Virus record (IMG/VR): IMGVR_UViG_3300046804_004848
Span: 32,001-96,000 of that record
Strand: one strand, 5' to 3'
Length of the DNA: 64,000 nt
From: a virus
A model generated the notes under the pieces. It saw only the letters and a program-made list of their open reading frames with translations. It ran no database searches and had not been told where the DNA came from. How positions within the stretch are numbered: the first letter of the stretch is position 1; every line of letters starts with the position of its first letter. The translations under genes and the position numbers were made by a program. This document shows positions 13,850-60,758 of this stretch, in pieces.

Positions 13850-16063
13850 ATGATTAATAATTCAGAGAATTCATCACAAAACCCACATATTAGTGATGTA
13901 ATTAAAGAAATGATGGCAAATCCTACAAGAAGAAATTTTCTTAAAGGAAGTTCAGCATTCATTACTGCTGCATCAGGAGCAACTTTAGCAGGTTGTGCAA
14001 GTGGGGATGATGATGTTTTTACACGTCCAACCGCTTTAAGCTTTGAAGCTGTTCCTAAAAATACCTTAGATAAAGTCACATTACCTGCAGGTTATCAATA
14101 CACTGTGCTTCATGGTACAGGTGACCGTTTAGTAAGTTCAATTCCTGCTTACTCAAACAAAGGAACAGAGACTGATGATTGGAGCCAACGGGTAGGTGAT
14201 CATCACGATGGAATAGAATTATTTCACTTAGATAGTGCAGGAAAATATACAAAAAATATGACTGATCGTGCTTTGTTATGTATGAATCATGAAAGTTCAG
14301 CAGACGCACACTTCTTTCACCAAAATGGACAAACTAGTAATGGTGTAAGTGGTAAAAAATATGATCAATTTGGTCAATGGGATCTTGGCACCCGTCCAGG
14401 CCTTGAGGCACTTAAAGAAATAAATCATCACGGTGTTAGTGTTGTAGAGATTAATAAAGGAAATACAGGTTGGACATATAAACTAGATAGTGCGTTTAAT
14501 CGCAGAATTACACCACAAACTGTCTGTCGTGTAGCAGGTCCTACTGCTGAACTGTCTAATATAAAAGCTTTATTGGCTACCAAGTTTGACACTACAGGAT
14601 CAACTGCTCGTGGAACAATAAACAATTGTGGCACAGGTTATACACCATGGGGTACATTTTTAACATGTGAAGAAAATTGGGCAACTTATTTTGCTATGCC
14701 TAAAGGTAGCGTTGCTCCTGATGCACGTATGGCACAAACTCGTGCTCGTTATGGTGTTCGTAACGCTGCACTTGCTGCAACTGCTACAACAAGTAATACA
14801 CAAGGATGGCACACGGTTACTGACCAACCTGATACAGCATTTAGATTTAGTCGTTGGGATGTAAGCATCAAAGGTGCTACTGATAAAGATGACTTTCGTA
14901 ACGAACCGCAAACCTTCGGTTATATAGTAGAGATAGATCCTACCCAACCTAACAGTCAACCTGTTAAGAGAGTGGCAATGGGAAGGACTGCTCACGAAGC
15001 TTGTGTATTCGGAAAGTTAGAAGCAGGAAAACCTGTTACATTTTATATGGGATGTGATAGTCGCAACGAATATATTTACAAATGGGTAAGTACAAAAACG
15101 TGGGATCCTGCTGATTTTGGTGGTGGTACTGCTGCAGGTGACAAATATCTTAATGATGGTAACCTATATGTAGCTAAATTTAATAGCGATGGAACAGGAC
15201 TTTGGTTAGAATTAAGTATTACTACCCCCGCAATTGCAAATTATGCTACTTTTAAATTTAATAACCAAGCAGAAGTTTACGTATTTACTCGTTTAGCAGC
15301 AGATGCAGTTGGTGCTACTAAAATGGATCGTCCTGAATGGGGTGCTGTTAATCCCGCTAATGGCGAGATTTACTTCTCATTAACAAACAATAGTGCAGCA
15401 AATCGGACTCCTAATACCACTGATGCAGCCAATCCAAGAAGTTATGCTGATCCTGATGGAAAAATGGGATCAGGTAATCCAAATGGACATATTATTCGTT
15501 TTAAGGAAGGTTTAACAGGGCTTACTTTCCAATTTGATATTTTCTTATTTGGTTCAGAAGAAGATAACGCTGTAAGTAATATATCTAAACTTACAACTAA
15601 AAATTCATTTAGTAGTCCTGATGGATTATGGTTTAGTAAAGCAACGGGTTTATGTTGGATTCAAACTGATGATGGTGCATATACGGATGAAGTAAATTGT
15701 ATGTTATTAGTGGCGATTCCTGGTCAGGTTGGGGATGGTAAAGCAGTTACAATTACTAATACATTAAGCGGTGCTACTAAAGATCAAGCTACTTTTGTAG
15801 GTGCGGAATTAGGTGAAACTAAATTACGTAGATTTTTGACAGGCCCTGCAGGATGTGAAATTACAGGAATTGCAGAATCTGCTGATGGTCGTACTATTTT
15901 TGTCAATGTGCAGCATCCAGGTGAAAACACTACCGCAGCCTTTTGGACAGGAACAGCACCTGAGAGTCAGTGGCCTGGTAACGCAGGGTATGGCGTTACA
16001 GGTCGCCCACGTTCTGCAACTTTAGTAATAACAAAAGTTGACGGTGGACTTATAGGAGTTTAA
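13850..16063 (+). CDS. phoX: Alkaline phosphatase PhoX (Tat-exported lipoprotein)
   Basis: TRRNFL Tat motif with LAGC lipobox; HHDG, NHE, TPWGTFLTCEEN, GRTAHE, MDRPEW, SPDGL, CEITG and VNVQHPG motifs. Confidence 0.95.
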   Translation: MINNSENSSQNPHISDVIKEMMANPTRRNFLKGSSAFITAASGATLAGCASGDDDVFTRPTALSFEAVPKNTLDKVTLPAGYQYTVLHGTGDRLVSSIPAYSNKGTETDDWSQRVGDHHDGIELFHLDSAGKYTKNMTDRALLCMNHESSADAHFFHQNGQTSNGVSGKKYDQFGQWDLGTRPGLEALKEINHHGVSVVEINKGNTGWTYKLDSAFNRRITPQTVCRVAGPTAELSNIKALLATKFDTTGSTARGTINNCGTGYTPWGTFLTCEENWATYFAMPKGSVAPDARMAQTRARYGVRNAALAATATTSNTQGWHTVTDQPDTAFRFSRWDVSIKGATDKDDFRNEPQTFGYIVEIDPTQPNSQPVKRVAMGRTAHEACVFGKLEAGKPVTFYMGCDSRNEYIYKWVSTKTWDPADFGGGTAAGDKYLNDGNLYVAKFNSDGTGLWLELSITTPAIANYATFKFNNQAEVYVFTRLAADAVGATKMDRPEWGAVNPANGEIYFSLTNNSAANRTPNTTDAANPRSYADPDGKMGSGNPNGHIIRFKEGLTGLTFQFDIFLFGSEEDNAVSNISKLTTKNSFSSPDGLWFSKATGLCWIQTDDGAYTDEVNCMLLVAIPGQVGDGKAVTITNTLSGATKDQATFVGAELGETKLRRFLTGPAGCEITGIAESADGRTIFVNVQHPGENTTAAFWTGTAPESQWPGNAGYGVTGRPRSATLVITKVDGGLIGV

Positions 16064-16068
16064 AATAT

Positions 16069-16091
16069 ATAGGGGATAAATTATCCCCTAT
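16069..16091 (+). terminator. Inverted repeat between phoX and pstS
   Basis: ATAGGGGATAA-A-TTATCCCCTAT followed by T run. Confidence 0.55.
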
Positions 16092-16111
16092 TTTATATAT
16101 AAGGAAAAAAT

Positions 16112-17119
16112 ATGAAAAAATTTTTATCAGCAATTGCATTATCACTTTTTACTATAACTGCACAAGCAGCAGAAATTACAGGAGCAGGTGCCACCTTCCC
16201 TTACCCAATTTATGCAAAATGGGCAGAGGCTTATCACAAAGCTACAGGTAATACACTAAACTATCAAAGTATTGGTAGTAGTGGAGGTATACGCCAAATT
16301 AATAACAAAACAGTTAGTTTTGGAGCCACTGATGCGCCTGTTAAAGGTGAAGATTTAGATAAGTTAGGTCAAGTTCAATTTCCTGCTATCATCGGTGGTA
16401 CAGTACCTGTTATAAATCTTGAAGGCTTTAACCCAGGTGAACTTCGCATCACAGGACCTATTATGGCAGAGATGTTTATGGGTAGTATAACTAAATGGAA
16501 TGATCCAAAATTTTCAGCCCTTAACCCAGGCAAAAAACTTCCTGATTTAAATATTACTGTGGTTCATCGTGCTGATGGTAGTGGCACTACCTTTAATTGG
16601 ACAGACTATCTTACTGAAGTAAGTCCTGCATGGAAAGAAAAAGTAGGTAAAGGTGCAGCCGTTAAGTGGCCAGCAACTTCTTCCGTTGGTGGAAAAGGTA
16701 ACGAGGGTGTTGCTGCTAATGTAAATAGAGTAAAAGGTGCAATCGGATATGTTGAATATGCTTATGTTAAGAAAAATAACATGAATTATATGAAACTACA
16801 AAACAAGGCAGGTAACTTTGTTGACCCTGATGATACAACATTTGCTGCAGCAGCAGCGGGTGCAGATTGGTTTAGTGTTGCAGGAATGGGACTAAGCATT
16901 GTAAATCAAGGTGGCAAGGATACTTGGCCTGTCACTACAGCAAGCTTTATTATTATGTACAAAGACCCTGCTGACAAAAAAGCAAGTCAAGAAGTAATTA
17001 AGTTTTTTGATTGGTCATTTAAGAATGGTAAGAAACTAAGTGAAGAACTTGATTATGTACATTTACCTGATAAACTACAAAACGACATACGTACAAAAGT
17101 ATGGAGTCAAATCAAGTAA
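16112..17119 (+). CDS. pstS: Phosphate-binding protein PstS
   Basis: GAGATFPYP, YQSIGSSGG, HRADGSGTT, GKGNEGV and GAIGYVE motifs; signal peptide. Confidence 0.97.
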   Translation: MKKFLSAIALSLFTITAQAAEITGAGATFPYPIYAKWAEAYHKATGNTLNYQSIGSSGGIRQINNKTVSFGATDAPVKGEDLDKLGQVQFPAIIGGTVPVINLEGFNPGELRITGPIMAEMFMGSITKWNDPKFSALNPGKKLPDLNITVVHRADGSGTTFNWTDYLTEVSPAWKEKVGKGAAVKWPATSSVGGKGNEGVAANVNRVKGAIGYVEYAYVKKNNMNYMKLQNKAGNFVDPDDTTFAAAAAGADWFSVAGMGLSIVNQGGKDTWPVTTASFIIMYKDPADKKASQEVIKFFDWSFKNGKKLSEELDYVHLPDKLQNDIRTKVWSQIK

Positions 17120-19527: not shown

Positions 19528-20201
19528 AAAAACGTATAGCATTATTTCAACACGATCCTGAATGCTCAATTTGGTGCTGCAACGGTATGATAAATGCCTT
19601 GCAGCAATCCTACAAAATCACTTGTTGGTCAACTAATGATAATATATATAAAGTACTACTAAAAACTGATATTCTTGCCTTCCCAGGTGGTATCGGTTCA
19701 AGCGATAAATTCTACAAATTCTTCTCACACGAAACTATAACTGCAATACAAAACTTTGTAACCAATGGTGGTTACTATTTGGGTATTTGCATGGGCGCAT
19801 ATTGGGCATCACATTATTACTTTAACATACTTAAAAGTGTAGAGGCTGTGCAATATATTAAGCGACCTGATACAGAAATTAAACGATCATATGCTACAGT
19901 TGCTAATGTACAATGGTTGCATGATGAAGAAGAAATGTTTTTTTATGATGGATGTTCATTGATTGGTAATGAACGTAAGTTTAAAGTAATCTCACGATAT
20001 TCTAATAATGATCCTATGGCAATTATACAAAACAACATAGGTATTATTGGGTGCCACCCTGAAAGTGAGAAGTTTTGGTACAATAAGTACAAATATATAA
20101 AGCAGCATTGGCACCATGGTAGGCACCATATGCTGCTATTAGACTTTGTTAATCGTCTTTCTTCAAACCAAACAACTGTAATAAATTCAAGAAAATATTG
20201 A
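19524..20201 (+). CDS. BPL-N / class I glutamine amidotransferase-like protein
   Basis: FPGG, GGYYLGICMGAY nucleophile elbow and GCHPE motifs. Confidence 0.75.
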   Translation: MKKRIALFQHDPECSIWCCNGMINALQQSYKITCWSTNDNIYKVLLKTDILAFPGGIGSSDKFYKFFSHETITAIQNFVTNGGYYLGICMGAYWASHYYFNILKSVEAVQYIKRPDTEIKRSYATVANVQWLHDEEEMFFYDGCSLIGNERKFKVISRYSNNDPMAIIQNNIGIIGCHPESEKFWYNKYKYIKQHWHHGRHHMLLLDFVNRLSSNQTTVINSRKY

Positions 20202-20835
20202 TAAAATCAAGATACAGTGTTAACGCACCTAATGATTCTACTCTAGCAGTTGCACCTTCTTCCATAATCATTTCACGAATTTTCTGTGTGTCATACGCAG
20301 TTAAACCAAGAAAAATAATAATAGCAAGTGCACTAATAACCATAGCAGCAACACTGCTACCAATAAAGATATTAATAATAGAGGCGATAACAATAGCAAT
20401 AAGCCCAACAAACAGAAACTTACCAATACTATCAAGATTCTTTTTAGTAAAGTAACCATAAAAACTCATCGTTCCAAATAAAACTGCTGCACCCATAAAT
20501 GCAGTAAAAATACTACCCATTTGGTATACTGCAAAGATTGTAGCAAAACTTAAACCCATTAGTGCAGCAAAACCTAGTAGCATCAATAGTGCAACCTCTT
20601 TAGATTGTACTTGTGATAATCCATAACTTACAGCAAACACTGCAACTAATGGAGCAAAAATAACAATCCATTTAATAAAACCTGTAAAAAAGAACTGTAA
20701 TAACTCAGGGGTAGTTCCAACCCAATAAGAAACAAGCATACTTACAACAACAGCAAGTGACATGTTTTTATACACACCTGCCATTGCTGAATTAATCTCA
20801 CTAGCCGTAGGGTATGTAATTGATTGTGAAAACAT
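20149..20835 (-). CDS. Bax inhibitor-1/YccA family membrane protein
   Basis: About seven TM segments; GLTAYDTQKI and GALTLYLDFINIF motifs. Confidence 0.92.
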   Translation of the reverse strand: MFSQSITYPTASEINSAMAGVYKNMSLAVVVSMLVSYWVGTTPELLQFFFTGFIKWIVIFAPLVAVFAVSYGLSQVQSKEVALLMLLGFAALMGLSFATIFAVYQMGSIFTAFMGAAVLFGTMSFYGYFTKKNLDSIGKFLFVGLIAIVIASIINIFIGSSVAAMVISALAIIIFLGLTAYDTQKIREMIMEEGATARVESLGALTLYLDFINIFLNLLQLFGLKKDD

Positions 20836-20864
20836 ATATTTCCTCCTATAAGAAAGTTTTCATA

Positions 20865-20880
20865 GATATTTATATAAATA
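20865..20880. promoter_or_regulatory. Back-to-back late promoters (TATAAATA on both strands)
   Basis: GATATTTATATAAATA. Confidence 0.5.
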
Positions 20881-20963
20881 CTATATGGTAAAACCATTAG
20901 ATACTATAGCAAATTTTTGGATTGATGGCTATGTTTTTGGTTTTATTTTGTGGTGGTATATGC

Positions 20964-21242
20964 CTACTTTCGCCGTTGGTCTTTTAGATGCTCAGGAACC
21001 TTTGAACGGTAATCCACTCCATCAATCGGTGTGTAATCTTTAGTCAGTGGTTGTTTTAATAAACTATCACCATACTTCAAACCAATGTAACTAATAACTT
21101 TTTCAACACCTTTTAAAGGTTTAAGTTGAATAAAACAATGTTCTTTCCATGTTAAGACAGTAAGCAAAAATGGTTTGATATTAGTATCTTTAATAATATC
21201 ATCAAACTTATCACTTTCACGCTTAAAAATTATAGTTTCCAT
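20964..21242 (-). CDS. Divergent member of the LRW small-protein family with C-terminal extension
   Basis: Internal ISYIGLKYG matches the family end motif. Confidence 0.45.
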   Translation of the reverse strand: METIIFKRESDKFDDIIKDTNIKPFLLTVLTWKEHCFIQLKPLKGVEKVISYIGLKYGDSLLKQPLTKDYTPIDGVDYRSKVPEHLKDQRRK

Positions 21243-21243
21243 A

Positions 21244-21435
21244 TCAATACCTTAAACTAAACCATGTGGCATACTTATCGTCATAAATATATAAAACAAT
21301 TTTATGATAATTTCCATAAAACACCCATGTTTGAGGTGAAGGTTGTCCCATCATTTTCCTACATTGTTTTAAAAAATCACTAATAGGACCTACCTCCCTT
21401 ACGGTGAATTCACGCTGAAAAAGTAGGTTTCTCAT
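21244..21435 (-). CDS. LRW-family small protein
   Basis: Ends YDDKYATWFSLRY. Confidence 0.65.
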   Translation of the reverse strand: MRNLLFQREFTVREVGPISDFLKQCRKMMGQPSPQTWVFYGNYHKIVLYIYDDKYATWFSLRY

Positions 21436-21436
21436 G

Positions 21437-21808
21437 TCAGTATCTTTTAATTACATTGAATGTGTGAATTTGATCAACATAGTCTGCTAACTCGCATGCT
21501 TTGCTGTAATCATCAAGTATGATTGCTTTTAGTGATCCATGGTCTAATAATTTTAAATGAACATCTTCTTCTGTTGTTATCAAAATATCGTTTGATAAAT
21601 TAATTAGCATCCAAGAATTTACAGTGTTTGGGTTATGTTCGTAAAACCCCAATGTAATATAATCTAATTTTAAATTCTTGATACACCAATTTACCATCTT
21701 CACTTTACCATTAGGGTTGGAAATACCTGTAGGGTATTCATCCCAAGTTACTGCATATCGTGATTGAAAAGGTTTTATTCGCATACTATCCCCACATGTT
21801 AGTTCCAT
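21437..21808 (-). CDS. Hypothetical protein, possibly a divergent LRW-family member
   Basis: MVNWCIKNL helix; ends FNVIKRY. Confidence 0.5.
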   Translation of the reverse strand: MELTCGDSMRIKPFQSRYAVTWDEYPTGISNPNGKVKMVNWCIKNLKLDYITLGFYEHNPNTVNSWMLINLSNDILITTEEDVHLKLLDHGSLKAIILDDYSKACELADYVDQIHTFNVIKRY

Positions 21809-22008
21809 CGCATTGCAAAAAAGGTTAGAATAGATTCTTCTTTAAAGTAAAAATCAGACTTATAAAAACCATAAACTACATTCCACTTATTTCTTCTTTC
21901 ACCAAACTTTTCAATTAACCATAGTTCAATATCAATAATTTGAGAATCAGCAGGATAGTTTACTGTAATTTTATAAGGCCAAATTTCTTTTTTAAGTCTT
22001 CTCATCAT
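21799..22008 (-). CDS. LRW-family small protein
   Basis: IELWLIEKFG..W..FYFKEESILTFFAMRWN. Confidence 0.7.
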   Translation of the reverse strand: MMRRLKKEIWPYKITVNYPADSQIIDIELWLIEKFGERRNKWNVVYGFYKSDFYFKEESILTFFAMRWN

Positions 22009-22032
22009 TATATCATAACATAGTAAAAATGA

Positions 22033-22272
22033 TTATTCTTTATCTTCATTGGCAGCATCCAAAAAATCTAATAACTCTATAGATGGGTGTGGGTAGATAC
22101 CGTATCTGCTGCCAAGTTGTCCTGGGTCATTGCTGTTGGTGCATCCTAATCTATGATCAGTAGCGTGTGGACAACGTTTGTTACCACAGGTATCACATAC
22201 GATAAAGGTACTGATAAACTTGGTAAAATTTGGTTTGAGGCATTCAAAACATTGACACTCCTTAGTATTCAA
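22033..22272 (-). CDS. Cys/His-rich putative Zn-binding protein
   Basis: CQCFEC and CDTCGNKRCPHATDH..CTNSN motifs. Confidence 0.65.
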   Translation of the reverse strand: MNTKECQCFECLKPNFTKFISTFIVCDTCGNKRCPHATDHRLGCTNSNDPGQLGSRYGIYPHPSIELLDFLDAANEDKE

Positions 22273-22273
22273 T

Positions 22274-22459
22274 CTACGTCCACCTCAATATAAACATCAT
22301 ATAATCACTTTCTTTTTCAAATGCAAAAACACCTTCACCTACATATTGAGAATGTGTGGCACCTATCTTTTCATGGCACCACGATATTACATCATACCAA
22401 CCACGTTTACCACCATCAGGAGGACAAATAGATGCAATATACGGATATTTAGGATTCAT
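22274..22459 (-). CDS. LRW-family small protein
   Basis: VISWCHEKIG..VFAFEKESDYMMFILRWT. Confidence 0.7.
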   Translation of the reverse strand: MNPKYPYIASICPPDGGKRGWYDVISWCHEKIGATHSQYVGEGVFAFEKESDYMMFILRWT

Positions 22460-22670
22460 ATTTTAACCGAAATAATGTAGAGTACTGTTCATCGTAAAAT
22501 GTAAAGATAACTTTTTTTGGAGTAATTCTATATTTTTCATAATCATATACTGATGGAATATATTTAAAATCAAAATGTTCTCCTTGATTAAATCCTGAGG
22601 CACGTAGTTCACGCACAATATCCATATATTGTGATAATTCTTTACCTTCAATGACTACATCAATAGCCAA
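22449..22670 (-). CDS. LRW-family small protein
   Basis: VIFTFYDEQYSTLFRLKYES. Confidence 0.65.
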   Translation of the reverse strand: MAIDVVIEGKELSQYMDIVRELRASGFNQGEHFDFKYIPSVYDYEKYRITPKKVIFTFYDEQYSTLFRLKYES

Positions 22671-22671
22671 T

Positions 22672-22920
22672 TTATCTCCATCTTAAATTATATAAAAATT
22701 CATGTTCAGGCTCTTTAAAAGTTACTATAAGTGTAGGAGGCAATCCTTGTATTCTAAACTTCCATGTTTCTTTATCCATACTGCGCCATTCTAAAAATTG
22801 AGCCACTGTACTTTTATTAAACGGTCTACCATCATTGGTATAATTTCTTTGTATAGTTTCATCCAACCATTTTAATTGTTCTTCCCATTCTTTTTTAAAA
22901 GGACTATCAAAATTATACAT
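22672..22920 (-). CDS. LRW-family small protein
   Basis: Likely start MYNF (TAATG coupling); ends VTFKEPEHEFLYNLRWR. Confidence 0.65.
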   Translation of the reverse strand: MYNFDSPFKKEWEEQLKWLDETIQRNYTNDGRPFNKSTVAQFLEWRSMDKETWKFRIQGLPPTLIVTFKEPEHEFLYNLRWR

Positions 22921-23135
22921 TATGCCCATCTCAAAGTAAACCAAACAGCATCTTGGCTATGCTGAAAACATACTATGATTTTATGACTTTGTTGGCTGTA
23001 ATAGGTATACCAAGTTTCACCGTATCTACCTAAATGTCGCCTACACCATTCATGTATAGCATCTTCATGACTTTTAGTCAATATAGGTTCAATTTCTATA
23101 CGATGTTCAAAATCTTGTGGTCTTACTACGCCCAC
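22920..23135 (-). CDS. LRW-family small protein
   Basis: IHEWCRRHLG..W..VCFQHSQDAVWFTLRWA. Confidence 0.7.
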   Translation of the reverse strand: MGVVRPQDFEHRIEIEPILTKSHEDAIHEWCRRHLGRYGETWYTYYSQQSHKIIVCFQHSQDAVWFTLRWA

Positions 23136-23136
23136 C

Positions 23137-23364
23137 TTACGCCCACCTCAATATAAACCAATTTAAGCTATGCTCATCTTCAAATATCACTTTATCGGGG
23201 TCACGAAAGTTTGCGGGAACATATTTTGCTTTATATGGCTTGAGTTTTTGGTTAAGTATTCTTAATGCTATATCATGATCAGGATTATCCTGATTGGCCT
23301 TTACAAAGTTTTGCCAATGTTTGGGACAATTTATAAGCATACTCTCTAAGTAAAAACCAATCAT
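23137..23364 (-). CDS. LRW-family small protein
   Basis: Likely start MIGF (ATGA coupling); ends VIFEDEHSLNWFILRWA. Confidence 0.7.
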   Translation of the reverse strand: MIGFYLESMLINCPKHWQNFVKANQDNPDHDIALRILNQKLKPYKAKYVPANFRDPDKVIFEDEHSLNWFILRWA

Positions 23365-23570
23365 GACCACCTCAAGGCAAACCACATGGCATCTCTGCTA
23401 TCTTCGAATTGAATATACTTTGTATCTGACCAACCAGGATTGTGATAATAGCGTCCCTGACAATGTTCTTCCAACCAACGATCCACATTATAATCTAGTA
23501 GACTGCGAATATGTACTGCTAACTGCCCTTGTTCCAATCTATGATAAACAACTGTATGTAGAGCCATCAT
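23361..23570 (-). CDS. LRW-family small protein
   Basis: Start MMAL; VDRWLEEHC..IQFEDSRDAMWFALRWS. Confidence 0.7.
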   Translation of the reverse strand: MMALHTVVYHRLEQGQLAVHIRSLLDYNVDRWLEEHCQGRYYHNPGWSDTKYIQFEDSRDAMWFALRWS

Positions 23571-23833
23571 GACCACCTCAATATAAACCAATTAGCATCA
23601 CGTTCATTTTCGAACCAAAATATGTTACCAGTCCAAGTATAGTGTTTCCCGCCAAATTCATGCTCACACCATTTACGTACATCATGCAAATCAACTAAAA
23701 GACTTTGACCTGTCAATGGAACACTATAATAGCCACCCTCAGCTAACCTATTGCTCCACCTTGTAATAGTTGGAGCAGAAAGCCCATCATAATGCTTCCA
23801 AGCTGCAATAAAATCTTGGATACAATCTTTCAT
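23567..23833 (-). CDS. LRW-family small protein
   Basis: Start MKDC; VRKWCEHEFG..FWFENERDANWFILRWS. Confidence 0.7.
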   Translation of the reverse strand: MKDCIQDFIAAWKHYDGLSAPTITRWSNRLAEGGYYSVPLTGQSLLVDLHDVRKWCEHEFGGKHYTWTGNIFWFENERDANWFILRWS

Positions 23834-24117
23834 GACCACCTCAATAAAAACATATTAATATCATCTTCATTGGTAAATCCCCATATTTCACCATCATTAC
23901 CACGCATGAAACATCGTGTTTTCCCAATCAATAATTTATCTGACCATTCCCAAAAATCACTTTTGTTCCAACGTTGCATCACAGGAATAAACAAAAAATA
24001 TTGACATTGTTCACCTAAACTTACTTCAGGTATCCATAATGGGCTAGTATTATTTGTACCTATCTTAGGCCAATGTTTATTAGCATATTTTATAAATTCT
24101 GTTCTAGTTAATAGCAT
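23830..24117 (-). CDS. LRW-family small protein
   Basis: FWEWSDK..WGFTNEDDINMFLLRWS. Confidence 0.7.
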   Translation of the reverse strand: MLLTRTEFIKYANKHWPKIGTNNTSPLWIPEVSLGEQCQYFLFIPVMQRWNKSDFWEWSDKLLIGKTRCFMRGNDGEIWGFTNEDDINMFLLRWS

Positions 24118-24118
24118 A

Positions 24119-24358
24119 TTAAGAATAATTTAACATAAACCAAGTATAATGTTCTGCACTTTTAAAAATCATACCTTTTAACGCATGTCCATTATAAACA
24201 AGGTTGATACCATAATTATCATAATACCAATCACAAGCTTGAATCCTAGAATCAATACCCAATTTTGGTACACTTTTTTGTCCTGAACCTTCCCACAAAT
24301 TATATAAAACTTGTATTACTTCACGATTTTTTTCAACAAAATATGCCATTATCGCCAC
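24119..24358 (-). CDS. LRW-family small protein
   Basis: MIFKSAEHYTWFMLNYS. Confidence 0.65.
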   Translation of the reverse strand: MAIMAYFVEKNREVIQVLYNLWEGSGQKSVPKLGIDSRIQACDWYYDNYGINLVYNGHALKGMIFKSAEHYTWFMLNYS

Positions 24359-24576
24359 ACTAAATTAAACCATACAAAATCACGTTCATGTCTAAATTTC
24401 ACCTCAGTATGCGCATGGAAAAAACGCCAACGACAATGTTTTTCACATCCTTCCACATTAGCGTATAACCAATCAAGGACTTCTTCATAATTACCACTGT
24501 TGACATGTGCTAGATACCACCCATTACAATTAGTATCCCATCCCCATACATGAGCAAGGTATCGTCTATCACTCAT
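24349..24576 (-). CDS. LRW-family small protein
   Basis: VLDWLYANV..VKFRHERDFVWFNLVWR. Confidence 0.7.
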   Translation of the reverse strand: MSDRRYLAHVWGWDTNCNGWYLAHVNSGNYEEVLDWLYANVEGCEKHCRWRFFHAHTEVKFRHERDFVWFNLVWR

Positions 24577-24578
24577 GG

Positions 24579-24779
24579 TTACTTCAATAAATCTAACGCA
24601 GTAGCATACTCCATCACGTAATCAACATCCCACGGTTGTTTCCAAGTAATACGTACTCTACGTTTGTAGCATTTTTTCAACCATAGCATGTTACCTGAAA
24701 TAGTGACTTTAGGCAATAATGCATAAGTTTCTACCCAATCGTAGCAACCTTCTTTATCAACCTCTTTAGTTTCAATCAT
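24579..24779 (-). CDS. Hypothetical protein (not LRW family)
   Basis: Likely start MIETKE overlapping the upstream stop; W..YALLP...LWLK..YKR motif. Confidence 0.55.
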   Translation of the reverse strand: MIETKEVDKEGCYDWVETYALLPKVTISGNMLWLKKCYKRRVRITWKQPWDVDYVMEYATALDLLK

Positions 24780-24921
24780 CAATTCTTGTGTAGTTGAGGA
24801 CATTACCTACTCCATATTGTGCCTCACCAAGCATTTTAGCTTCATAGTCATTATTTGCCCAAATGATGGTGTTAGCAGTTTGATAGTCGTTAAGTCGTAC
24901 CCAAAGTTGATATTTGTACAT
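24772..24921 (-). CDS. 49-aa protein, not in ORF track (MYKYQLWVRLNDYQTANTIIWANNDYEAKMLGEAQYGVGNVLNYTRIDD)
   Basis: Open frame fills the gap in the array. Confidence 0.65.
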   Translation of the reverse strand: MYKYQLWVRLNDYQTANTIIWANNDYEAKMLGEAQYGVGNVLNYTRIDD

Positions 24922-24926
24922 TTCAT

Positions 24927-25157
24927 TTACATCCATTTTAACATAAAAAACACGTAGTTGTCAAGCGTTTCAAACTTGATATAACGTGCGCCCCATGGTG
25001 CTGAATCATTTTCAGTCATAAATTGTGCCCCATAAGGTTCCAACATAATATTTATTTGATAGATTGGAAAGTAGATTGCATCATTTTGCTTTAAAAAATT
25101 AATCCACCATATAGGTTTTGGCTCAGTCTCAGTTTCTTCAAATAATTTAATAAGCAT
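24927..25157 (-). CDS. LRW-family small protein
   Basis: PIWWINF resembles PKHWQNF in 23137; ends IKFETLDNYVFFMLKWM. Confidence 0.7.
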   Translation of the reverse strand: MLIKLFEETETEPKPIWWINFLKQNDAIYFPIYQINIMLEPYGAQFMTENDSAPWGARYIKFETLDNYVFFMLKWM

Positions 25158-25159
25158 GA

Positions 25160-25390
25160 TTACATATATTTCAACGCAAATAAGTTGTAACTTGCTTCAT
25201 TATGAAACTCAATATACGCAATACAATTAAATTGTTTAATTCCAACAGATAACACGTAATGGTGTACAAAACAATCATGTCTTTTTTCAAAAGCAGGTAC
25301 AAATTCATTGCTTTCTTGGTCAATACCTAAATCTTTTATTGCGTTTTGGCAATCAAAAGAATCAACAATAATAGACATAATTAACTCCAA
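25160..25390 (-). CDS. LRW-family small protein
   Basis: IEFHNEASYNLFALKYM. Confidence 0.65.
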   Translation of the reverse strand: MELIMSIIVDSFDCQNAIKDLGIDQESNEFVPAFEKRHDCFVHHYVLSVGIKQFNCIAYIEFHNEASYNLFALKYM

Positions 25391-25626
25391 GTAAGTAGAA
25401 AAAATGATTGTAGTTCTGCTGTGGTAAATTGTAGAACAATACCTTCTAATTTAAAATTATTTACCCCAATATTTTTTAGTAACCAACTTGTAATTTCTGC
25501 ATCATTTTCTACCCACCATGTAAAATCTATGATAAAACAACAGTGTTCATGAGTAGAAATATTAGGCACCCCTGAAAAAACTAAAAAACGTTGACCTACA
25601 TCCATTTCATTGCAAAAAAAGTACAA
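25381..25626 (-). CDS. LRW-family small protein
   Basis: ITSWLLKNIG..LQFTTAELQSFFLLTWS. Confidence 0.65.
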   Translation of the reverse strand: MYFFCNEMDVGQRFLVFSGVPNISTHEHCCFIIDFTWWVENDAEITSWLLKNIGVNNFKLEGIVLQFTTAELQSFFLLTWS

Positions 25627-25787
25627 TCATTTTCATTACTAAAACTTACTACATAGTGTCCTGCTTGTTCACCGCCTACATCTAAATTAGCAAAGTGCCA
25701 TTCGCCTGTGCAATTATGTTGACACCAATCAAAAATATCGCCTAACTTACCAAATGGTATGGTAACTGTTAAGGTATGATTATCCAT
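25596..25787 (-). CDS. LRW-family small protein
   Basis: IFDWCQHNCTGEW..VSFSNENDCTFFAMKWM. Confidence 0.7.
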   Translation of the reverse strand: MDNHTLTVTIPFGKLGDIFDWCQHNCTGEWHFANLDVGGEQAGHYVVSFSNENDCTFFAMKWM

Positions 25788-26283
25788 GTGAAATAACTTC
25801 TACTCCACTTTTTTCAAGAAATTTTATCCCTGCATCGTCCCTATAGTGTGTACCAAAATACACACGACGAATACCTGCACTGTATATACTTTTTGCACAT
25901 TCAAGACACGGTGCATGAGTAATAAACATTGTTGCTCCATTCCCACCCTCTGATCCTTTAGCTAGTTTGTCCAAGGCGTTCCGCTCAGCATGCAGTACTT
26001 CAGGTCTAGTTTTTAGTCTGTATCTTCTTTCTACACTGTAACCACTAATCCAAAAATTACCTAACAATGGATAGTCTTGTAATTTAGCACTAGTATCATT
26101 GATAGGCATAAATTCAGTATATTCACAGCCATTGTCCCATCCACTAGGCATACCATTGTAGCCAATACTAATGATACGATCATCTTTTACAATGATCGCA
26201 CCAACTTTTAATCGCACTGCATAACTAAGTTCAGATACTCGTTTTGCTATATCAGCATAAAGTTGTATAAATTTTTCTTTCAT
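25780..26283 (-). CDS. dCMP deaminase
   Basis: VGAIIV, GYNG, HAERNA and PCLEC motifs; start MKEKF at 26283. Confidence 0.92.
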   Translation of the reverse strand: MKEKFIQLYADIAKRVSELSYAVRLKVGAIIVKDDRIISIGYNGMPSGWDNGCEYTEFMPINDTSAKLQDYPLLGNFWISGYSVERRYRLKTRPEVLHAERNALDKLAKGSEGGNGATMFITHAPCLECAKSIYSAGIRRVYFGTHYRDDAGIKFLEKSGVEVISHG

Positions 26284-27014
26284 TTGTAGTTTGATAAAAA
26301 TTCTAGCGTAGTTTTTGTTGCTTGCTCTGTGGCAGTAGCACTGTATTGTGTAACATGACCCCATCTTGCGTTATTGTATGAACGGTCAAAACTATGATAT
26401 GCCCCATCATAAACAAATACTTGCTGTAATTTATTTAAGTCTTTAAATGATTCGCATAAACTACTTGGAGTCCATGTATCAAGTGAACCAATATGTATTT
26501 GTGATGGTACTTTTACATGGTGGTAGGAATAATTGCATTTAGGATAATACGCTATCACACCATCTAATTTTGTATTTGATATAATTCCTGCCTCTAATAC
26601 ACTAGCAGCACCGTGACTAAAACCTATTCCAATTACTGCTCCACGATGCCATGATTGTTGTTTTACCCATGCAGCCATTGCGTTAATATCCTCACCACGT
26701 TGGGCAAATGTCAATTTATTTGAGTTGCATGTTGTTGGTAAATTTCTTGCACCTAAACTATCAGGAATAACGACATTAAATCCTGCCTTAAATAACAAAC
26801 TTACCCATTGATAATCTTCAGTATTAATCCCATTACAACCATGTGCAAGTACTACTGTGGGAGAGGGAACATCTTGCAATTTTTTATCAAACGCTACTTT
26901 AATAGGTACTACAGAACTAAGGTAAGGATCAATCACCTCAATCTTTGTCCACCAAAATGCTGCATGTACGATGTTTGTAAACAATAGTGATAAAAAAATA
27001 AGAATGATTTTCAT
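26280..27014 (-). CDS. Secreted alpha/beta hydrolase (dienelactone hydrolase-like)
   Basis: Signal peptide from MKIILIF (27014); HGCNG, GFSHG, DTWTP and GAYHSFD motifs. Confidence 0.8.
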   Translation of the reverse strand: MKIILIFLSLLFTNIVHAAFWWTKIEVIDPYLSSVVPIKVAFDKKLQDVPSPTVVLAHGCNGINTEDYQWVSLLFKAGFNVVIPDSLGARNLPTTCNSNKLTFAQRGEDINAMAAWVKQQSWHRGAVIGIGFSHGAASVLEAGIISNTKLDGVIAYYPKCNYSYHHVKVPSQIHIGSLDTWTPSSLCESFKDLNKLQQVFVYDGAYHSFDRSYNNARWGHVTQYSATATEQATKTTLEFLSNYK

Positions 27015-27015
27015 A

Positions 27016-27546
27016 TTAATCCCATAGTGAACGATAATATTTTGCAAACAAATCCAATCCTTCTTGAATACGCTCTTGATATAAGGCGTATCCTTCTGCG
27101 TCAAAATAATGACTAGTAGGATCAGGATCAACCATCTGACTTAATTCTTCAACTTGATTGGTAACAGGATTTAACATGGTTTGACCTGTTTTAACAAATT
27201 TAAACCTAGGTACTTTACCATAATGGAAGGATTCTTCATTATCCCGTATAAGTTGACCAAATGACCATATCATTTTATCAAGAACTACGTCCCACTCTTT
27301 AATTTTTTCATTAAATGCCCAATCATATGATTCTTTGTAAAAATCAAAACATCCTTGGTCGTGCCAATCTTCCCCACCAACATGAGCAAAGTCAGCAGGA
27401 ATACCATGTTTTACCATGCGTAATTCCAACAAAGCAGGATAAATGATATATGCTAATGAAGTATCCAAACTCCATAAATCATGATTATCAATATGTACGG
27501 CAATTTTTCTACCTACTTTTAGGTATTTGGACATTTTAACTTTCAT
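27016..27546 (-). CDS. Conserved phage hypothetical protein
   Basis: DLWSLD..LA.II.P.L, W..VLDKMIWSF and RIQEGL.LF.KYY..LWD motifs. Confidence 0.65.
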   Translation of the reverse strand: MKVKMSKYLKVGRKIAVHIDNHDLWSLDTSLAYIIYPALLELRMVKHGIPADFAHVGGEDWHDQGCFDFYKESYDWAFNEKIKEWDVVLDKMIWSFGQLIRDNEESFHYGKVPRFKFVKTGQTMLNPVTNQVEELSQMVDPDPTSHYFDAEGYALYQERIQEGLDLFAKYYRSLWD

Positions 27547-32186: not shown

Positions 32187-32215
32187 AGTATATGATAAGT
32201 TTTATAGTTTGTCAA
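32187..32215 (-). promoter_or_regulatory. Sigma70 early promoter
   Basis: TTGACA-17-TATACT. Confidence 0.75.
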
Positions 32216-32421
32216 ACCCAATATAAACTAAAATTAAGCAAATCAGATTCTTGTTGGAAGGATACAACACGTTCATTAAAGTTAAATCCTTGTCTCCAAG
32301 TATACGGACCAACACAATATTGTTTTAACCAATTTAAAATTTCTTGTATATTATCTTTGTTCTGCACAACAATTTTCGTAACATGCATATAAGTAATACC
32401 TGGTTTGATGATTTCGTACAT
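32212..32421 (-). CDS. LRW-family small protein (dispersed copy)
   Basis: ILNWLKQYC.G..W..VSFQQESDLLNFSLYWV. Confidence 0.65.
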   Translation of the reverse strand: MYEIIKPGITYMHVTKIVVQNKDNIQEILNWLKQYCVGPYTWRQGFNFNERVVSFQQESDLLNFSLYWV

Positions 32422-32423
32422 AG

Positions 32424-32452
32424 ATTATACATATTTATGTACCTATTGTCAA
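32424..32452 (-). promoter_or_regulatory. Sigma70 promoter
   Basis: TTGACA-17-TATAAT (perfect consensus). Confidence 0.7.
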
Positions 32453-32456
32453 GTAG

Positions 32457-33239
32457 TTACGTAGCCCATTTCAAACTAAACATAGTTGCATGTTCATCAT
32501 TATCAAAACTGAACCCTACGGTGTGATACATGTCAGGTTTACATAGTAACTCATAAGATAACTTACTACCTTGTAACCAAGTAACCATATCATTAAAATA
32601 TGCCATACTTGGTAATTCTACAAAGACATAATGTTTTGTTGGTGGATTTATTACGTTAGCTATAATATTATCTTTTTTATTTGTAAGCGTAATAGATGCT
32701 CCGTTGTTCCACGTCATAATACAAGTACTATAAGGTAAACTGTAGGTAGTTTCTATAATGTTTTCTTCACATTCACTCCATAGAAAATCTTGTGCATCAA
32801 CATCAAAATCATTATATTTCTCATCATTTGGATCAACAGGGTATCCATTAAGTTCTCTAACAATTTCTTCTAAATCAACATCACTAATCCACTCCCAACC
32901 TTTACCATCTGCATCTTCATTACATAAATCAAGCAAAAAATCTTTATCATGTATGGTAAAGTAAAGTTGAGTATCACTTGTACGATTCTCACACATTGAC
33001 AGTGCTATGGCACAAACTGAGTCTGAATCCCAATAATTATAGTAATCTAATTCATTTAAGCTACCGCTTTTTTGTTGAATATAAATCCAACCTTTAGATT
33101 CTTCGTTAGATTGACCTACGACTTTATCATGATAAGTCCATTCACTTATTTCTGAAATCCAACCTGTTACCCCAATTTCTTTAGGTAACCCATAAAGATC
33201 AATAAATTTTTTAACTTGCTTATATGCTTTAGTGTTCAT
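32457..33239 (-). CDS. Acidic protein with C-terminal LRW-family domain
   Basis: Ends MVTWLQG..GFSFDNDEHATMFSLKWAT. Confidence 0.65.
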   Translation of the reverse strand: MNTKAYKQVKKFIDLYGLPKEIGVTGWISEISEWTYHDKVVGQSNEESKGWIYIQQKSGSLNELDYYNYWDSDSVCAIALSMCENRTSDTQLYFTIHDKDFLLDLCNEDADGKGWEWISDVDLEEIVRELNGYPVDPNDEKYNDFDVDAQDFLWSECEENIIETTYSLPYSTCIMTWNNGASITLTNKKDNIIANVINPPTKHYVFVELPSMAYFNDMVTWLQGSKLSYELLCKPDMYHTVGFSFDNDEHATMFSLKWAT

Positions 33240-33948
33240 TTTTCTTAAACCATTTTACAAAATTGCTATAGGATTTGACAAAAGTAAGGGTTCTTGTATC
33301 CTTTCCAACCCATTCATCCTTTGATATAACTTTTGTTTTTATATCAAAAAACGTGTCACTTGTGCTAATATATTGGACTAATGGAAAACCCGCAGGAATA
33401 AAAATTCTATATGGTTCGGGTTTGTGCTTAAACAAAATAAACACATTAGTGGTGTGACTGTAATAAAAATCAAGAAACCCAGGCATCACCGTGTAATTAA
33501 CTATGCCATGATGGTGATAAAATGGAGCAGTAGCATAAAAATTTGTAGGTTTTGATGCTTCTGCAACCCAAGGTGATTGTAATTTTAAGTGACTATACTC
33601 AGGGGCAAACTCACCAAATTGTTTACTATCATGGATGGTTCCACTTGAATTATTATGTGAAAAAAGATAGTTAAACGATTTATCAGGGTAAACATCTATA
33701 ACCAAATCGCACCACATAGGTAAAATTATACCATTTGTTAGCGTGTTTTTAATACCTGCACAACTCCTAACCGTTGGTGAATCCACCTCAATATTATAAT
33801 CCTGTTCTATTCTTTTATAAACAGGTTTTAATTTTTCAAACCATGATGGATAACATTTTGAGGTGTTTATTGGTGGTAATGCTTGGCTAATAATTCTATT
33901 TTCTTGTGTGCAAGAAAATGTTATACTAGTTTTTTTCTTAACAAACAT
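33229..33948 (-). CDS. Hypothetical protein, possibly dUTPase-like beta fold
   Basis: TVRSCAGI, GIILPMWCD, LKLQSPW, PGFLD and IPAGFPLVQ motifs. Confidence 0.5.
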   Translation of the reverse strand: MFVKKKTSITFSCTQENRIISQALPPINTSKCYPSWFEKLKPVYKRIEQDYNIEVDSPTVRSCAGIKNTLTNGIILPMWCDLVIDVYPDKSFNYLFSHNNSSGTIHDSKQFGEFAPEYSHLKLQSPWVAEASKPTNFYATAPFYHHHGIVNYTVMPGFLDFYYSHTTNVFILFKHKPEPYRIFIPAGFPLVQYISTSDTFFDIKTKVISKDEWVGKDTRTLTFVKSYSNFVKWFKKNEH

Positions 33949-39330: not shown

Positions 39331-40443
39331 TTATTTTTGGATAAACACATCATTGATTTGACGGTTTACTCTGATAAATGTAGTGCATTTAGGTAGTTGT
39401 TTAAGATTAGCTGCGCCAACATAGGTACACGTGCTGCGTAAGCCACCTAATATATCAAGTACAGTATTTTTAACTTGTCCTTTATAAGGTATTTCTACTG
39501 TACGTCCTTCGCTAGAACGATACTCTGCTACACCACCATGTGTTTTATTCATAGCAGTATCGCTACTCATGCCATAAAATTGTACGAATTTTTTAATGTC
39601 TAACATTGGTTCCATTTCATGGCTATGAGTATTATCATCATTCCAAACTGTAAGTGGATTAATTTCTGATGTATTATAATATTTTGTAATAACTTCTCCA
39701 CCACCTTCATCGTGTCCACCAAACATGCCACCTAACATTACAAAATCTGCTCCTGCACCAAAAGCCTTTGCAACATCCCCAGGACAAGTACACCCTCCAT
39801 CAGCAATAATATGTCCACCAAGACCATGAGCGGCATCTGCACATTCAATAATTGCACTAAGTTGAGGATAACCCACACCTGTTTGTACCCTAGTAGTGCA
39901 AACACTGCCTGGACCAATCCCCACTTTCACAATATCTGCTCCACGTAATATTAACTCCTGTGTCATATCTGCTGTAACTACATTACCTGCAATAATTGTT
40001 TTATCAGGCCAACGTGTTCTAACTTGTTCTACAAAGTCACCAAAATGTTCACTATACCCATTGGCTACATCAATACAAATAAATTGAGCACCAATACCTG
40101 TGATAATAGTGTTTAAGTTACGAAAATCTTCTTCACTAGTTCCTGTACTAACAGCATAATCATCTTTGTTTACATTAAATTCAGAAAAATTTTCAATGTC
40201 TTTGTTATAGGTTTTAATAAGGCAGGTAAATAACCTATGTTGACTTAATGTTTCTGCCATTTTTAAAGTGCCAACACCATCCATATTAGCAGCCATAATA
40301 GGAATACCTTCGTATTCATAACGGCTGTGTTTAAACCTATAAAATCTTAGCAAATCTACTTCTTTACGACTTGATAGTGTGCTTCGCTTTGGACGAATCA
40401 ATACATCCTTGAAATCAAGTAAGATTTCATTTTCAATTCTCAT
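39331..40443 (-). CDS. guaC: GMP reductase
   Basis: [46 protein letters not shown] and YRSSEG motifs. Confidence 0.95.
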
Positions 40444-41976: not shown

Positions 41977-42186
41977 CTAATAAAGTTTTGTAGGTAATTC
42001 CTGTGTACGTAAATATTTTTTCCAACGACTTACTGCTTTGCCTCTAGCAATTTTTCTAGCGATGCTAGGTTTAGTATACTCTTGACGATCACGTAATTCT
42101 TGCATAATACCACTTTCAAGAACTTTCTTCTTGAATTTTCTTATGCCACTTTCAAATGACTGTCCTTCACGTATTACAACTTTCAT
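41977..42186 (-). CDS. rpsU: Ribosomal protein bS21
   Basis: V..REGQSFES.IRKFKKKV..G...ELR.R..Y.KPS..RK. Confidence 0.88.
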   Translation of the reverse strand: MKVVIREGQSFESGIRKFKKKVLESGIMQELRDRQEYTKPSIARKIARGKAVSRWKKYLRTQELPTKLY

Positions 42187-56724: not shown

Positions 56725-56753
56725 AGTGTAACTCAACCCTATTGAGTTGTCAA
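56725..56753 (-). promoter_or_regulatory. Sigma70 promoter with palindromic spacer
   Basis: TTGACA-ACTCAAtagggTTGAGT-TACACT. Confidence 0.65.
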
Positions 56754-56827
56754 GTTTTTATTCTTCGGCATATGGGTACATAAATATTGCCATATACATC
56801 TCACTTATATCTACACTAAGGGCACAT

Positions 56828-60296: not shown

Positions 60297-60758
60297 TTAA
60301 ATTGTAATATCTTCCATTCCTGCAACACGCAATCGCACGATATGACCTAGCATAAAGTTTTTAGACTCAAGTGCTTTCATAATACCTAACCATTGATTAC
60401 GCATGAGCGCAACTTCATTGACTAGCGTTTCCATGTCAATAACATCTTGTTCAGCATCAGCATAGCGTTCAGCATCACGTGATGTTAATTGACGTGGATA
60501 ATTTTCAAGATACTTTTTAAAAGCAAGACTACGTGTTTTACGAAGTTGTCCATTCATATAATCTAAAACAGCTTCAATCTCTTGTAGTTGATTGAAACGA
60601 TGCTCGGTGATACCTGGGAGCATGGCTAACAATCGTTCAACACGTTCGCCTTTAATAATTTTTACTTCATATTTTGCTTGATTTAACTCATCTTGATAAT
60701 GGTCAATGAATTCAGGTAATGATGATAAGTTTTGAGTTACTGTATTGAACCAACCCAT
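60297..60758 (-). CDS. UvsY-like recombination mediator
   Basis: Helical; KYLE.Y...L..RDAE.Y.D, K.LE.K.F.L motifs; near uvsX. Confidence 0.6.
   Translation of the reverse strand: MGWFNTVTQNLSSLPEFIDHYQDELNQAKYEVKIIKGERVERLLAMLPGITEHRFNQLQEIEAVLDYMNGQLRKTRSLAFKKYLENYPRQLTSRDAERYADAEQDVIDMETLVNEVALMRNQWLGIMKALESKNFMLGHIVRLRVAGMEDITI

Follow-up and report, generated by a model that had tools for sequence, protein, structure and literature searches.

In a 64,000-nt stretch of viral DNA (the window; bases 32001-96000 of the single 137,959-bp IMG/VR record IMGVR_UViG_3300046804_004848, 34.7% G+C), some 20 small genes, closely packed on the minus strand, form an array at positions 21244-25787. Sixteen of these genes form one family, whose conserved C-terminal codons appear to double as the ribosome binding site (RBS) of the next gene and recur as short direct repeats from one gene junction to another. 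The explanation that we favour, and hold to be probable, is that translation has fixed the spelling of these gene tails and that the resulting repeats enable seamless exchange of whole cassettes, with illegitimate deletions acting in addition. We regard the recombination role as a by-product of this translation-driven conservation rather than as a selected function. The array is carried by a large uncultured freshwater phage; its record is linear according to IMG/VR and, by the CheckV estimate, 39% complete, a value that hints at a jumbo phage. A preliminary description of this DNA had covered just seven genes of the larger array. Positions are those of the window unless another contig is named, and the genes are numbered g1 to g20 from the upstream end.

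The 16 family genes align over a shared C-terminal block, F.F..E.DA.WF.L[RK][WY] followed by 0-2 residues, with 16-37% amino acid identity to the reference gene, in line with the earlier view of the array as cassettes of a single family. At the DNA level similarity among the array genes is limited to the last 45-64 nt, at 60-78% identity; the statement that the gene bodies have no visible DNA similarity was thus roughly true, and needs this qualification for their ends. Every repeat that had been listed is real and lies where it had been placed: TCATGACCACCTCAA (reverse complement TTGAGGTGGTCATGA) at 23361, 23567 and 23830, CCACCTCAATATAAAC at 22280, 23143 and 23573, and the 21-mer CCACCTCAATATAAACCAATT at 23143 and 23573. 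The minus strand of the whole record carries TTGAGGTGG six times, and the plus strand not at all. Five of the six copies are the in-frame L-R-W codons, TTG AGG TGG, of the genes ending at 22274, 23137, 23361, 23567 and 23830, the five genes for which this spelling had been claimed. The sixth, at 33783, is read in another frame (I-E-V-D) within the gene at 33229-33948 and was set aside as a chance copy. When at most one mismatch is allowed, the degenerate junction pattern TTGAGGTGGNCNTRA gives six matches against 0.05 expected, and none of 100 shuffles reaches six.

Three junctions, g9/g10 (23830..23844), g10/g11 (23567..23581) and g11/g12 (23361..23375), all on the minus strand like the array itself, consist of TTGAGGTGGTCATGA, as first described. 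In the g9/g10 copy this one word holds the tail of g9, the SD-like (Shine-Dalgarno-like) site and the start of g10. All three read YTG AGG TGG TCA TGA, with the ATG of the next gene inside the ATGA stop/start overlap. The g12/g13 junction (23137..23151) is TTGAGGTGGGCGTAA, followed by an 11-nt tandem duplicate that supplies a GTG start; g13/g14 (22920..22934) reads TTGAGATGGGCATAA(TG), and g16/g17 (22274..22288) reads TTGAGGTGGACGTAG. One junction ends ...TGG GCA TAA TG, giving a TAATG overlap, and at two others GAGGTGG lies 7-8 nt ahead of a GTG or TTG start. A GAGG placed 5-8 nt upstream of a start, inside the preceding coding region and next to a stop/start overlap, is the arrangement of translationally coupled overlapping genes. 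A second initiation route is found where the K-W or R-W codons, AAA TGG or CGA TGG, themselves contain the next ATG (g1 to g2, g4 to g5 and g18 to g19); the tail therefore feeds initiation in two ways, supplying the SD-like site at some junctions and the ATG itself at others. No hairpin was found at the six junctions that were folded (z-scores -1.3 to +1.5), and Rfam gave no match in 20000-27000 at E<=0.1. Promoter-like sites, 34 in number where 41 are expected, show no enrichment, and the motif junctions have none; terminator-like sites are few, with none at junctions.

The spelling of the tails fits a role in translation. Record-wide, over 115 long open reading frames (ORFs), AGG makes up 4.8% of Arg codons, and TTG and CTG make up 14.9% and 1.5% of Leu codons. 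Within 36 cassette groups of this phage clade AGG accounts for 23 of the 28 Arg codons before the motif Trp; for the remainder of these genes the count is 13 of 69. TTG accounts for 22 of 33 codons at the motif Leu versus 20 of 92 in gene bodies. The 20 nt upstream of the three ATGA starts are predicted to form a duplex of -14.1 kcal/mol with the 16S rRNA tail, taken here as the canonical short motif, from which the tail of the host may differ. By the same measure two further junctions give -10.7 and -10.3 kcal/mol, and 94 long ORFs have a median of -3.95 and a best value of -11.0 kcal/mol. TTG AGG TGG NCA TGA is the strongest predicted anti-Shine-Dalgarno match in the genome, and the earlier suggestion that the L-R-W codons double as an SD-like site for the next gene, with an overlapping start, holds at the level of prediction. 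We also looked at AGG codons without a nearby start, a test that proved uninformative, as five of the seven cases that appeared start-less have GTGA or ATGTGA overlapping starts.

Translational coupling at ATGA or TAATG overlaps, with the SD inside the upstream gene, is textbook knowledge, and the present junctions share with it the stop/start overlap and an SD-like site 5-8 nt upstream within the preceding gene. They differ from it in that the signal belongs to a conserved C-terminal motif shared by an entire gene family, and in that it recurs identically at many junctions and in many phages.

Relatives of the array, as compared with this record (G), differ in the number and order of their cassettes. 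A scan of IMG/VR with the dCMP deaminase gene that flanks the array yielded four contigs (L001-L004) with the same flanks and array and 80-85% deaminase identity; the remaining 76 loci of that scan, at about 55% identity, gave no family match. A metagenome scan with g13 added six more partial arrays (L086-L091). INPHARED held no close relative by DNA and none with the g10 protein, and its matches to the deaminase were all below 60% identity. In ortholog maps of G, L002, L003, L004 and L086-L091 the first eight genes are collinear, with one indel, and the number and order of the cassettes differ. The variable centre has 8 genes in G, 8 in L004, about 14 in L002 and about 19 in L003. By cassette group, the order runs 13-24-17-20-28 in G, 13-14-15-...-27-28 in L003 and 35-17-66-22-24-25-13-48-20-14-56 in L090. 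Profile-positive genes number 16 in the array of G; per locus, the profile gave 15 hits in L004, 21 in L002 and 24 in L003, two of the hits in each of L002 and L003 sitting upstream of the array. The comparison of order among relatives that had been proposed earlier thus has an answer: nine related arrays differ in both respects, so the order is not fixed. Tandem paralogues that vary in copy number and order among close relatives are the pattern of a tandem multigene family with birth-and-death evolution by unequal exchange. Codon differences within the array between G and its relatives comprise 224 synonymous and 160 non-synonymous changes.

Nearly every junction of the variable part is YTGAGGTGGNCATGA, and homology between orthologous cassettes tends to end there. 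When the downstream neighbour differs, homology in local alignments ends between -11 and +13 nt of the stop in 97 of 125 pairwise comparisons, and in same-neighbour controls it continues past +100 in 119 of 126. Pairwise counts of this kind are non-independent; among distinct break types, 36 of 46 lie within -15..+13 nt of the stop. Weaker support comes from neighbours, which are kept in 7 of 18 comparisons at motif junctions versus 31 of 42 at non-motif junctions (Fisher p=0.018, on counts that are not independent), and from the L-R codons of the upstream gene. Among 94 pairs with a common downstream gene and different upstream genes, 47 have these codons in identical form; the figure for the reverse case is 43 of 100, and that for unrelated junctions, taken as baseline, is 663 of 2496 (27%). 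Such co-variation with the downstream neighbour suggests that many crossovers lie upstream of the two codons.

Several single events between close relatives are seamless. A block of groups 21-27, present in L002 and L003 and absent in G, lies between 12-nt ATGGGCATAATG repeats; cassette 13, found in L090 and not in L091, lies between two copies of TTGAGGTGGTCATGA (15-mers); and at cassette 16 the crossover falls inside TGAnnTGG. Logan contigs from four runs of four studies, compared over 20800-26400, provide independent cases. In a 10,177-nt contig of run X6, position 22929 is joined to 23147; the shorter side of the joint spans 212 nt, and 5 letters are ambiguous. Exactly g13 is lost at this joint, the crossover lying in TTGAG, where the two junctions match at 13 of 15 positions. 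A scarred deletion of g17 is present in contigs of three runs, each from a different study (22015 joined to 22267), the same as in L004. Ten of the 23 loose contig ends listed lie at most 25 nt from the three 15-mers, with 56 more loose ends beyond those listed. The joints of runs X12 and X7 whose shorter side measures just 20-38 nt were left out of the evidence. In X12, an estuary metagenome, the summed contig depth at 23231-23604 (g11/g12) is about ten times that of the remaining array; depth was not used as evidence, and g11/g12 may sit in other, more abundant genomes in that sample.

Taken as a mechanism, the small genes would lack promoters of their own and be expressed as a polycistronic array, and the region originally described would be where this array varies most. 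We infer one or two early polycistronic transcripts, because the genes are co-directional and overlapping, internal terminators are lacking and promoter-like sites are present at 28331-28303 and 24964-24935. Selection for translation of the next gene would have fixed the tail as YTG AGG TGG NCA TGA, in which the anti-Shine-Dalgarno end of 16S rRNA would base-pair with GAGGTGG(TC) and the ATGA overlap would hold the following ATG. As the tail of each family gene would give the next RBS and start, a cassette would be translated wherever it lands behind another member. All cassettes carry the tail, and so direct repeats stand on either side of each one, stretches of 12-21 identical nt embedded in some 45-64 nt that are less alike. 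Homology-dependent events between such repeats would delete, add or reorder whole cassettes without scars, whether through unequal exchange between co-infecting relatives or through copy-choice. The phage's own recombination machinery may carry out the exchange, the window containing, on the minus strand, UvsY-like (60297-60758), UvsX-like (61012-62076) and gp32-like single-stranded DNA-binding protein (62368-63351) genes. Ordinary illegitimate deletions take place in the array as well.

Several points weigh against this explanation. The identical stretch is only 12-15 nt, which to our knowledge is short for known recombinases, and this makes copy-choice during replication an equally possible route. 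The array also holds at least five scarred indels (group 32, groups 34-35, group 31, one end of group 82, and group 81); these show microhomology of 0-2 nt, lack the motif at one end or at both and leave gene stubs behind, which means that indels at gene boundaries arise without the motif as well. Since nearly all junctions of the variable part carry the motif, breaks at the motif are confounded with breaks at gene boundaries, and the relatives are all metagenome assemblies. Any SD core at all is found in only 48 of the 115 long ORFs of this phage, so dependence on Shine-Dalgarno pairing is an assumption. Lastly, synonymous differences between orthologues amount, in the motif versus the gene bodies, to 34.6% versus 14.6% for Leu and 25.4% versus 29.2% for Arg. 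The check on synonymous sites that had been proposed earlier therefore turned out negative, with no extra conservation in the motif, and nothing points to selection on exact DNA identity. The proposal that recombination at the junctions adds, deletes and reorders cassettes accordingly stands in part: order varies and some indels are seamless and flanked by repeats, but several others are scarred and off the motif. As both kinds are seen, homology-guided and illegitimate events both shape the array. Indels bounded by a conserved element between close relatives are the pattern, judged from sequence, of shuffling at boundary sequences or at the promoter-early stem-loop (PeSL) elements of T4-type phages, and indels of the non-motif, scarred sort occur next to them.

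Many of these observations could be had from translation alone, protein function and selection on SD sites and starts keeping the motif, and random illegitimate recombination followed by selection for intact and expressed genes doing the shuffling; in recombination itself the shared junction would then have no mechanistic role. Each synonymous choice in the motif (the wobble G of Leu, AGG, and NNA with TGA) fits selection for an SD site and an ATGA start, so that translation signals suffice to explain the spelling. The preliminary description had held that motif codon use explained by SD selection alone would undo its proposal; SD and ATGA needs together can account for all the choices. The same account is favoured by the lack of extra synonymous conservation between orthologues, by the scarred non-motif deletions in the array and in three runs (joint 22015 to 22267) and by the mosaic boundaries of mycobacteriophages, which mostly lack conserved sequences (PMC3029335). 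It is less easily squared with the many base-exact joints (the ATGA overlaps leave no intergenic space, so a viable new joint must be base-exact), with the 12-15-nt direct repeats that flank indels, with the lower retention of neighbours at motif junctions and with the co-variation of the L-R codons with the downstream neighbour. We consider translation alone unlikely as a full account. The converse, a dedicated recombination site in which the junction is kept by second-order selection or a specific factor, as an integrase-free attachment site or a Chi-like, orientation-dependent hotspot, appears to us less probable again. It could draw on the single orientation of all copies, with none on the other strand, on the prediction that the junction pairs more strongly than any other start region in the genome, and on a 15-mer that ends family genes in 65 of 80 IMG/VR loci on contigs of 4-338 kb. 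Between G and L090, moreover, cassettes 20 and 24 share 92.6% and 91.5% nucleotide identity against 75-78% for GMP reductase, the one core gene compared. Co-directional genes alone would, however, give one orientation; the junction has no conserved structure, its synonymous sites are not frozen, and the record, at 39% completeness, yielded no site-specific recombinase.

Recent tandem duplication or gene conversion, which would make the identical 3' ends leftovers of young duplicates or products of homogenisation and would dispense with selection for translation, is in our view very improbable. The paralogues are in tandem, the 21-mer is common to g10 and g12 and the g12/g13 junction holds an 11-nt tandem duplication; against this, the paralogues share 16-37% amino acid identity, their DNA is nowhere similar beyond the last 45-64 nt, and the spelling recurs across 490 ORFs that form 320 clusters, 108 of 153 Arg codons being AGG. 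That mis-joins at repeats in metagenome assemblies have created the different orders we regard as next to negligible. The relatives are indeed all assemblies and contigs of run X12 often end at repeats, but the repeats are of 15-21 nt, shorter than the usual assembly words. L001 and L003, from different samples, agree over their shared part, L087 and L089 agree, two cassettes, those of groups 13 and 81, separate L090 from L091, and an identical deletion is present in L004 and in three runs of three studies.

The junction word extends beyond this clade. The 15-mer has at least 138 exact hits in IMG/VR; the analysis covered 80 loci on 68 contigs of 4-338 kb, overlapping loci being counted twice in the totals for copies. 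Chance alone should produce a given 15-mer in so large a collection (our own estimate), and single hits were therefore counted only at the ends of profile-positive ORFs. By this measure 107 of 138 copies in these loci lie exactly at the stop of such an ORF and 65 of the 80 loci have at least one such copy, with up to 13 family ORFs per 4 kb. In a further 202 family ORFs of these loci that lack the exact word, a sample biased by being drawn through the motif, AGG accounts for 108 of 153 Arg codons before Trp and TTG plus CTG for 138 of 192 Leu codons, and 120 have the ATGA overlap. The 490 family ORFs of the 80 loci fall into 320 clusters, and only 33 clusters occur in at least three loci, which is too sparse for a wider test of shuffling. 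A bolder extension would see here a phage-wide, integrase-free cassette system, in which the "plug" of tail, SD and ATGA is kept in part because promoterless, RBS-less genes can through it be chained and passed between unrelated phages, jumbo phages included, and the junction is selected for evolvability and not for translation alone, yielding a rapidly reshuffled repertoire of small host-directed proteins. We think this doubtful.

The family is a hugely diversified domain, some 60 residues long, that closes with ...DA.WF.LRW and one further residue. A profile built from the 16 array genes matched 665 cluster representatives (clusters at 50% identity) at E<=0.001 in a library of 1.84 billion proteins; nearly all matches are 55-125 amino acids long, with the block at the extreme C-terminus. 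P0048 (850 amino acids, six matching stretches), judged by eye from its sequence to be a repeat protein, was taken as a false positive. In the library proteins P0023 and P0134 two family domains stand in tandem, resembling fused neighbouring cassettes. The array genes had no family match in Pfam-A, PHROGs v4 or NCBIfam 20, and 92 diverse members had none in these three sets except two single Pfam hits at chance level. Sequence searches of the PDB gave nothing significant (best E 0.006 over 20 residues), and protein homology searches, including the ESM Atlas, returned relatives that are all viral and named "hypothetical protein" only. AlphaFold2, run with a 92-sequence alignment, predicts a small beta-alpha-beta-beta-alpha domain (predicted local distance difference test score, pLDDT, 83.2) with strands at residues 11-15, 42-47 and 52-57 and helices at 21-34 and 60-70. 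The model places the tail in this last helix, consistent with the conserved helix that had been proposed for the gene end. Foldseek against the PDB gave a best E of 0.28, a BFVD fold search returned uncharacterised phage proteins only, and a VIA wide search reached a best Z of 6.8 (an ACT domain, ferredoxin-like), under its stated noise level of 7-8. The function of the protein is not readable from the modelled fold. As a guess, with no tool result behind it, the proteins might form a diversified early repertoire for host interaction or counter-defence.

Integrons consist of promoterless cassettes in one orientation, mobilised by the integrase IntI at attC hairpins. The array resembles them in its chained promoterless cassettes of one orientation, its upstream expression signals and its variable content and order. 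No attC-like hairpin was found, and exchange here would rest on homology rather than on a site-specific enzyme; a search for an IntI-type tyrosine recombinase (PF00589) gave no match in the record, itself 39% complete, and matched 14 of 14 control genomes. The comparison to an integron without an integrase is thus apt solely as an analogy of effect. What the data partly support is a coding-sequence analogue of PeSL or boundary-sequence shuffling, and not an integron.

The PeSL cassettes of T4-type phages are intergenic elements of about 100 bp with a sigma-70 promoter and a terminator, which flank non-essential small ORFs in the hyperplastic region; recombination between them was proposed to delete, insert or swap ORFs at "acceptable" places, and mini-circles have been shown for them (Arbiol et al. 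2010, PMC2839356; Comeau et al. 2014, PMC4122927). Set beside these descriptions, the present array likewise has short conserved expression signals flanking small ORFs and a UvsX-type recombination system, whereas its element is 15-25 nt of coding sequence with a predicted role in translation and the PeSL acts on transcription. At our junctions, unlike at PeSLs, the genes overlap and there is no intergenic space, no stem-loop and no enrichment of promoters; lacking an intergenic promoter-terminator element, the array is not a PeSL. In mycobacteriophage Island3 the last 18 residues (about 50 bp) of the gene inserted at gp67/gp68 also end the gene upstream of it, which suggests that the two sequences recombined; that paper calls this the first such case in mycobacteriophages, most mosaic boundaries there being without such sequences (Pope et al. 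2011, PMC3029335). A conserved sequence at module junctions is common to the boundary-sequence model, as outlined there, and to our array, in which it is systematic and family-wide. The internal-protein (IP) loci of T-even phages, as summarised in a later paper, hold highly variable small, probably host-directed proteins between conserved PeSL-like flanks (Repoila et al. 1994, via PMC2839356); on that summary the likeness is one of variable loci of small diversified proteins, and the family described here is unrelated. Our literature search found no account of this family or of a junction of coding tail and SD serving as a recombination site.

Whether new joints between phage genes form at short conserved boundary sequences or by random illegitimate events has long been debated, and this array shows both side by side, seamless between junction repeats and scarred elsewhere. 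Its boundary sequence is the protein's own end, which would double as the translation signal of the next gene; what is new is that a conserved protein motif, common to a huge family of cassettes, contains the coupling signal. Attention is also drawn to a very large family of small phage proteins that has no annotation, comprises at least 665 clusters at 50% identity and travels in arrays of this kind. Should the junction really promote exchange, it would offer a simple, testable rule for how an accessory repertoire diversifies without a dedicated recombinase, and a handle for finding such arrays in metagenomes.

All genes of the array are on the minus strand. From the upstream end, g1 (25596..25787, 63 amino acids, ...FFAMKWM), a family member, overlaps the end of the dCMP deaminase gene, and its K-W codons AAA TGG form the ATG of g2 (25381..25605, 74 amino acids, ...FFLLTWS) at 25596-25610. 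They are followed by the family members g3 (25160..25378, 72 amino acids, ...LFALKYM) and g4 (24927..25157, 76 amino acids, ...FFMLKWM). The latter is present in G and L004 and absent in L001-L003, where a perfect TTGACA-17-TATAAT stands in its place (about 11131-11180 in L002 and L003, between groups 7 and 8); in G the 3' end of g4 itself contains a similar site, TTGACA-18-TAAAAT with TG (24964-24935). The K-W codons of g4 form the ATG of g5 (24772..24936, 54 amino acids) at 24927-24941; g5 has no family-profile match, and g6 (24579..24803, 74 amino acids) is likewise a small non-family gene. Family members follow as g7 (24349..24576, 75 amino acids, ...VWFNLVWR), g8 (24119..24349, 76 amino acids, ...TWFMLNYS) and g9 (23830..24117, 95 amino acids, ...NMFLLRWS), which closes the collinear left part.

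The next family members are g10 (23567..23833, 88 amino acids, ...NWFILRWS), g11 (23361..23570, 69 amino acids, ...MWFALRWS), which has another array position in L003, L090 and L091, and g12 (23137..23364, 75 amino acids, ...NWFILRWA). At the g12/g13 junction (about 23125-23151) the 11-nt tandem duplication, GGTGGGCGTAA / GGTGGGCGTAG, is shared with L004; in G it uncouples the overlap and creates a GTG start, and L002 has at this site a single 11-nt copy, an 11-nt gene overlap and an ATG start. Then come g13 (22920..23135, 71 amino acids, ...VWFTLRWA), with its GTG start and the cassette lost in the X6 contig, g14 (22672..22920, 82 amino acids, ...FLYNLRWR), g15 (22449..22670, 73 amino acids, ...LFRLKYES) and g16 (22274..22459, 61 amino acids, ...MMFILRWT), all of the family. 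The Cys-rich non-family cassette g17 (22033..22272, 79 amino acids) is deleted in L004 and in contigs of three runs, and has several different neighbours in other relatives. The family member g18 (21799..22008, 69 amino acids, ...TFFAMRWN) provides through its R-W codons CGA TGG (21799-21813) the ATG of g19 (21437..21808, 123 amino acids, no profile match), just as AGA TGG provides that of gene 20 in L002, and the array ends with the family member g20 (21244..21435, 63 amino acids, ...TWFSLRY). Beyond the array the family has two further members within 32212-33239, again on the minus strand: a 69-amino-acid gene (32212-32421) and the C-terminal domain of a 260-amino-acid protein (32457-33239).

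The array is flanked, on the same strand, by the dCMP deaminase gene upstream (25780..26364) and by a gene for a Bax1-I family membrane protein downstream (20149..20835). A dienelactone-hydrolase family gene (26280-27131) adjoins the deaminase gene in G and is missing in L001-L004; in L002 and L003 a 2OG-Fe(II) oxygenase gene (L002:17810-18349), absent in G, separates the array from the Bax1-I gene. Within the L090 array, group 81 is an extra cassette (L090:6893-7786) encoding a Dam-type, D12-class N6-adenine DNA methyltransferase (PF02086, E 6.8e-22), which is absent in L091 and L086. Auxiliary or unusual genes elsewhere in the window (13850-17119, 39331-40443, 42183-43436 and 56747-58501) encode a PhoX phosphatase, a PstS-like phosphate-binding protein, GMP reductase, a ClpX-like ATPase and a Pol III alpha-type polymerase fragment.

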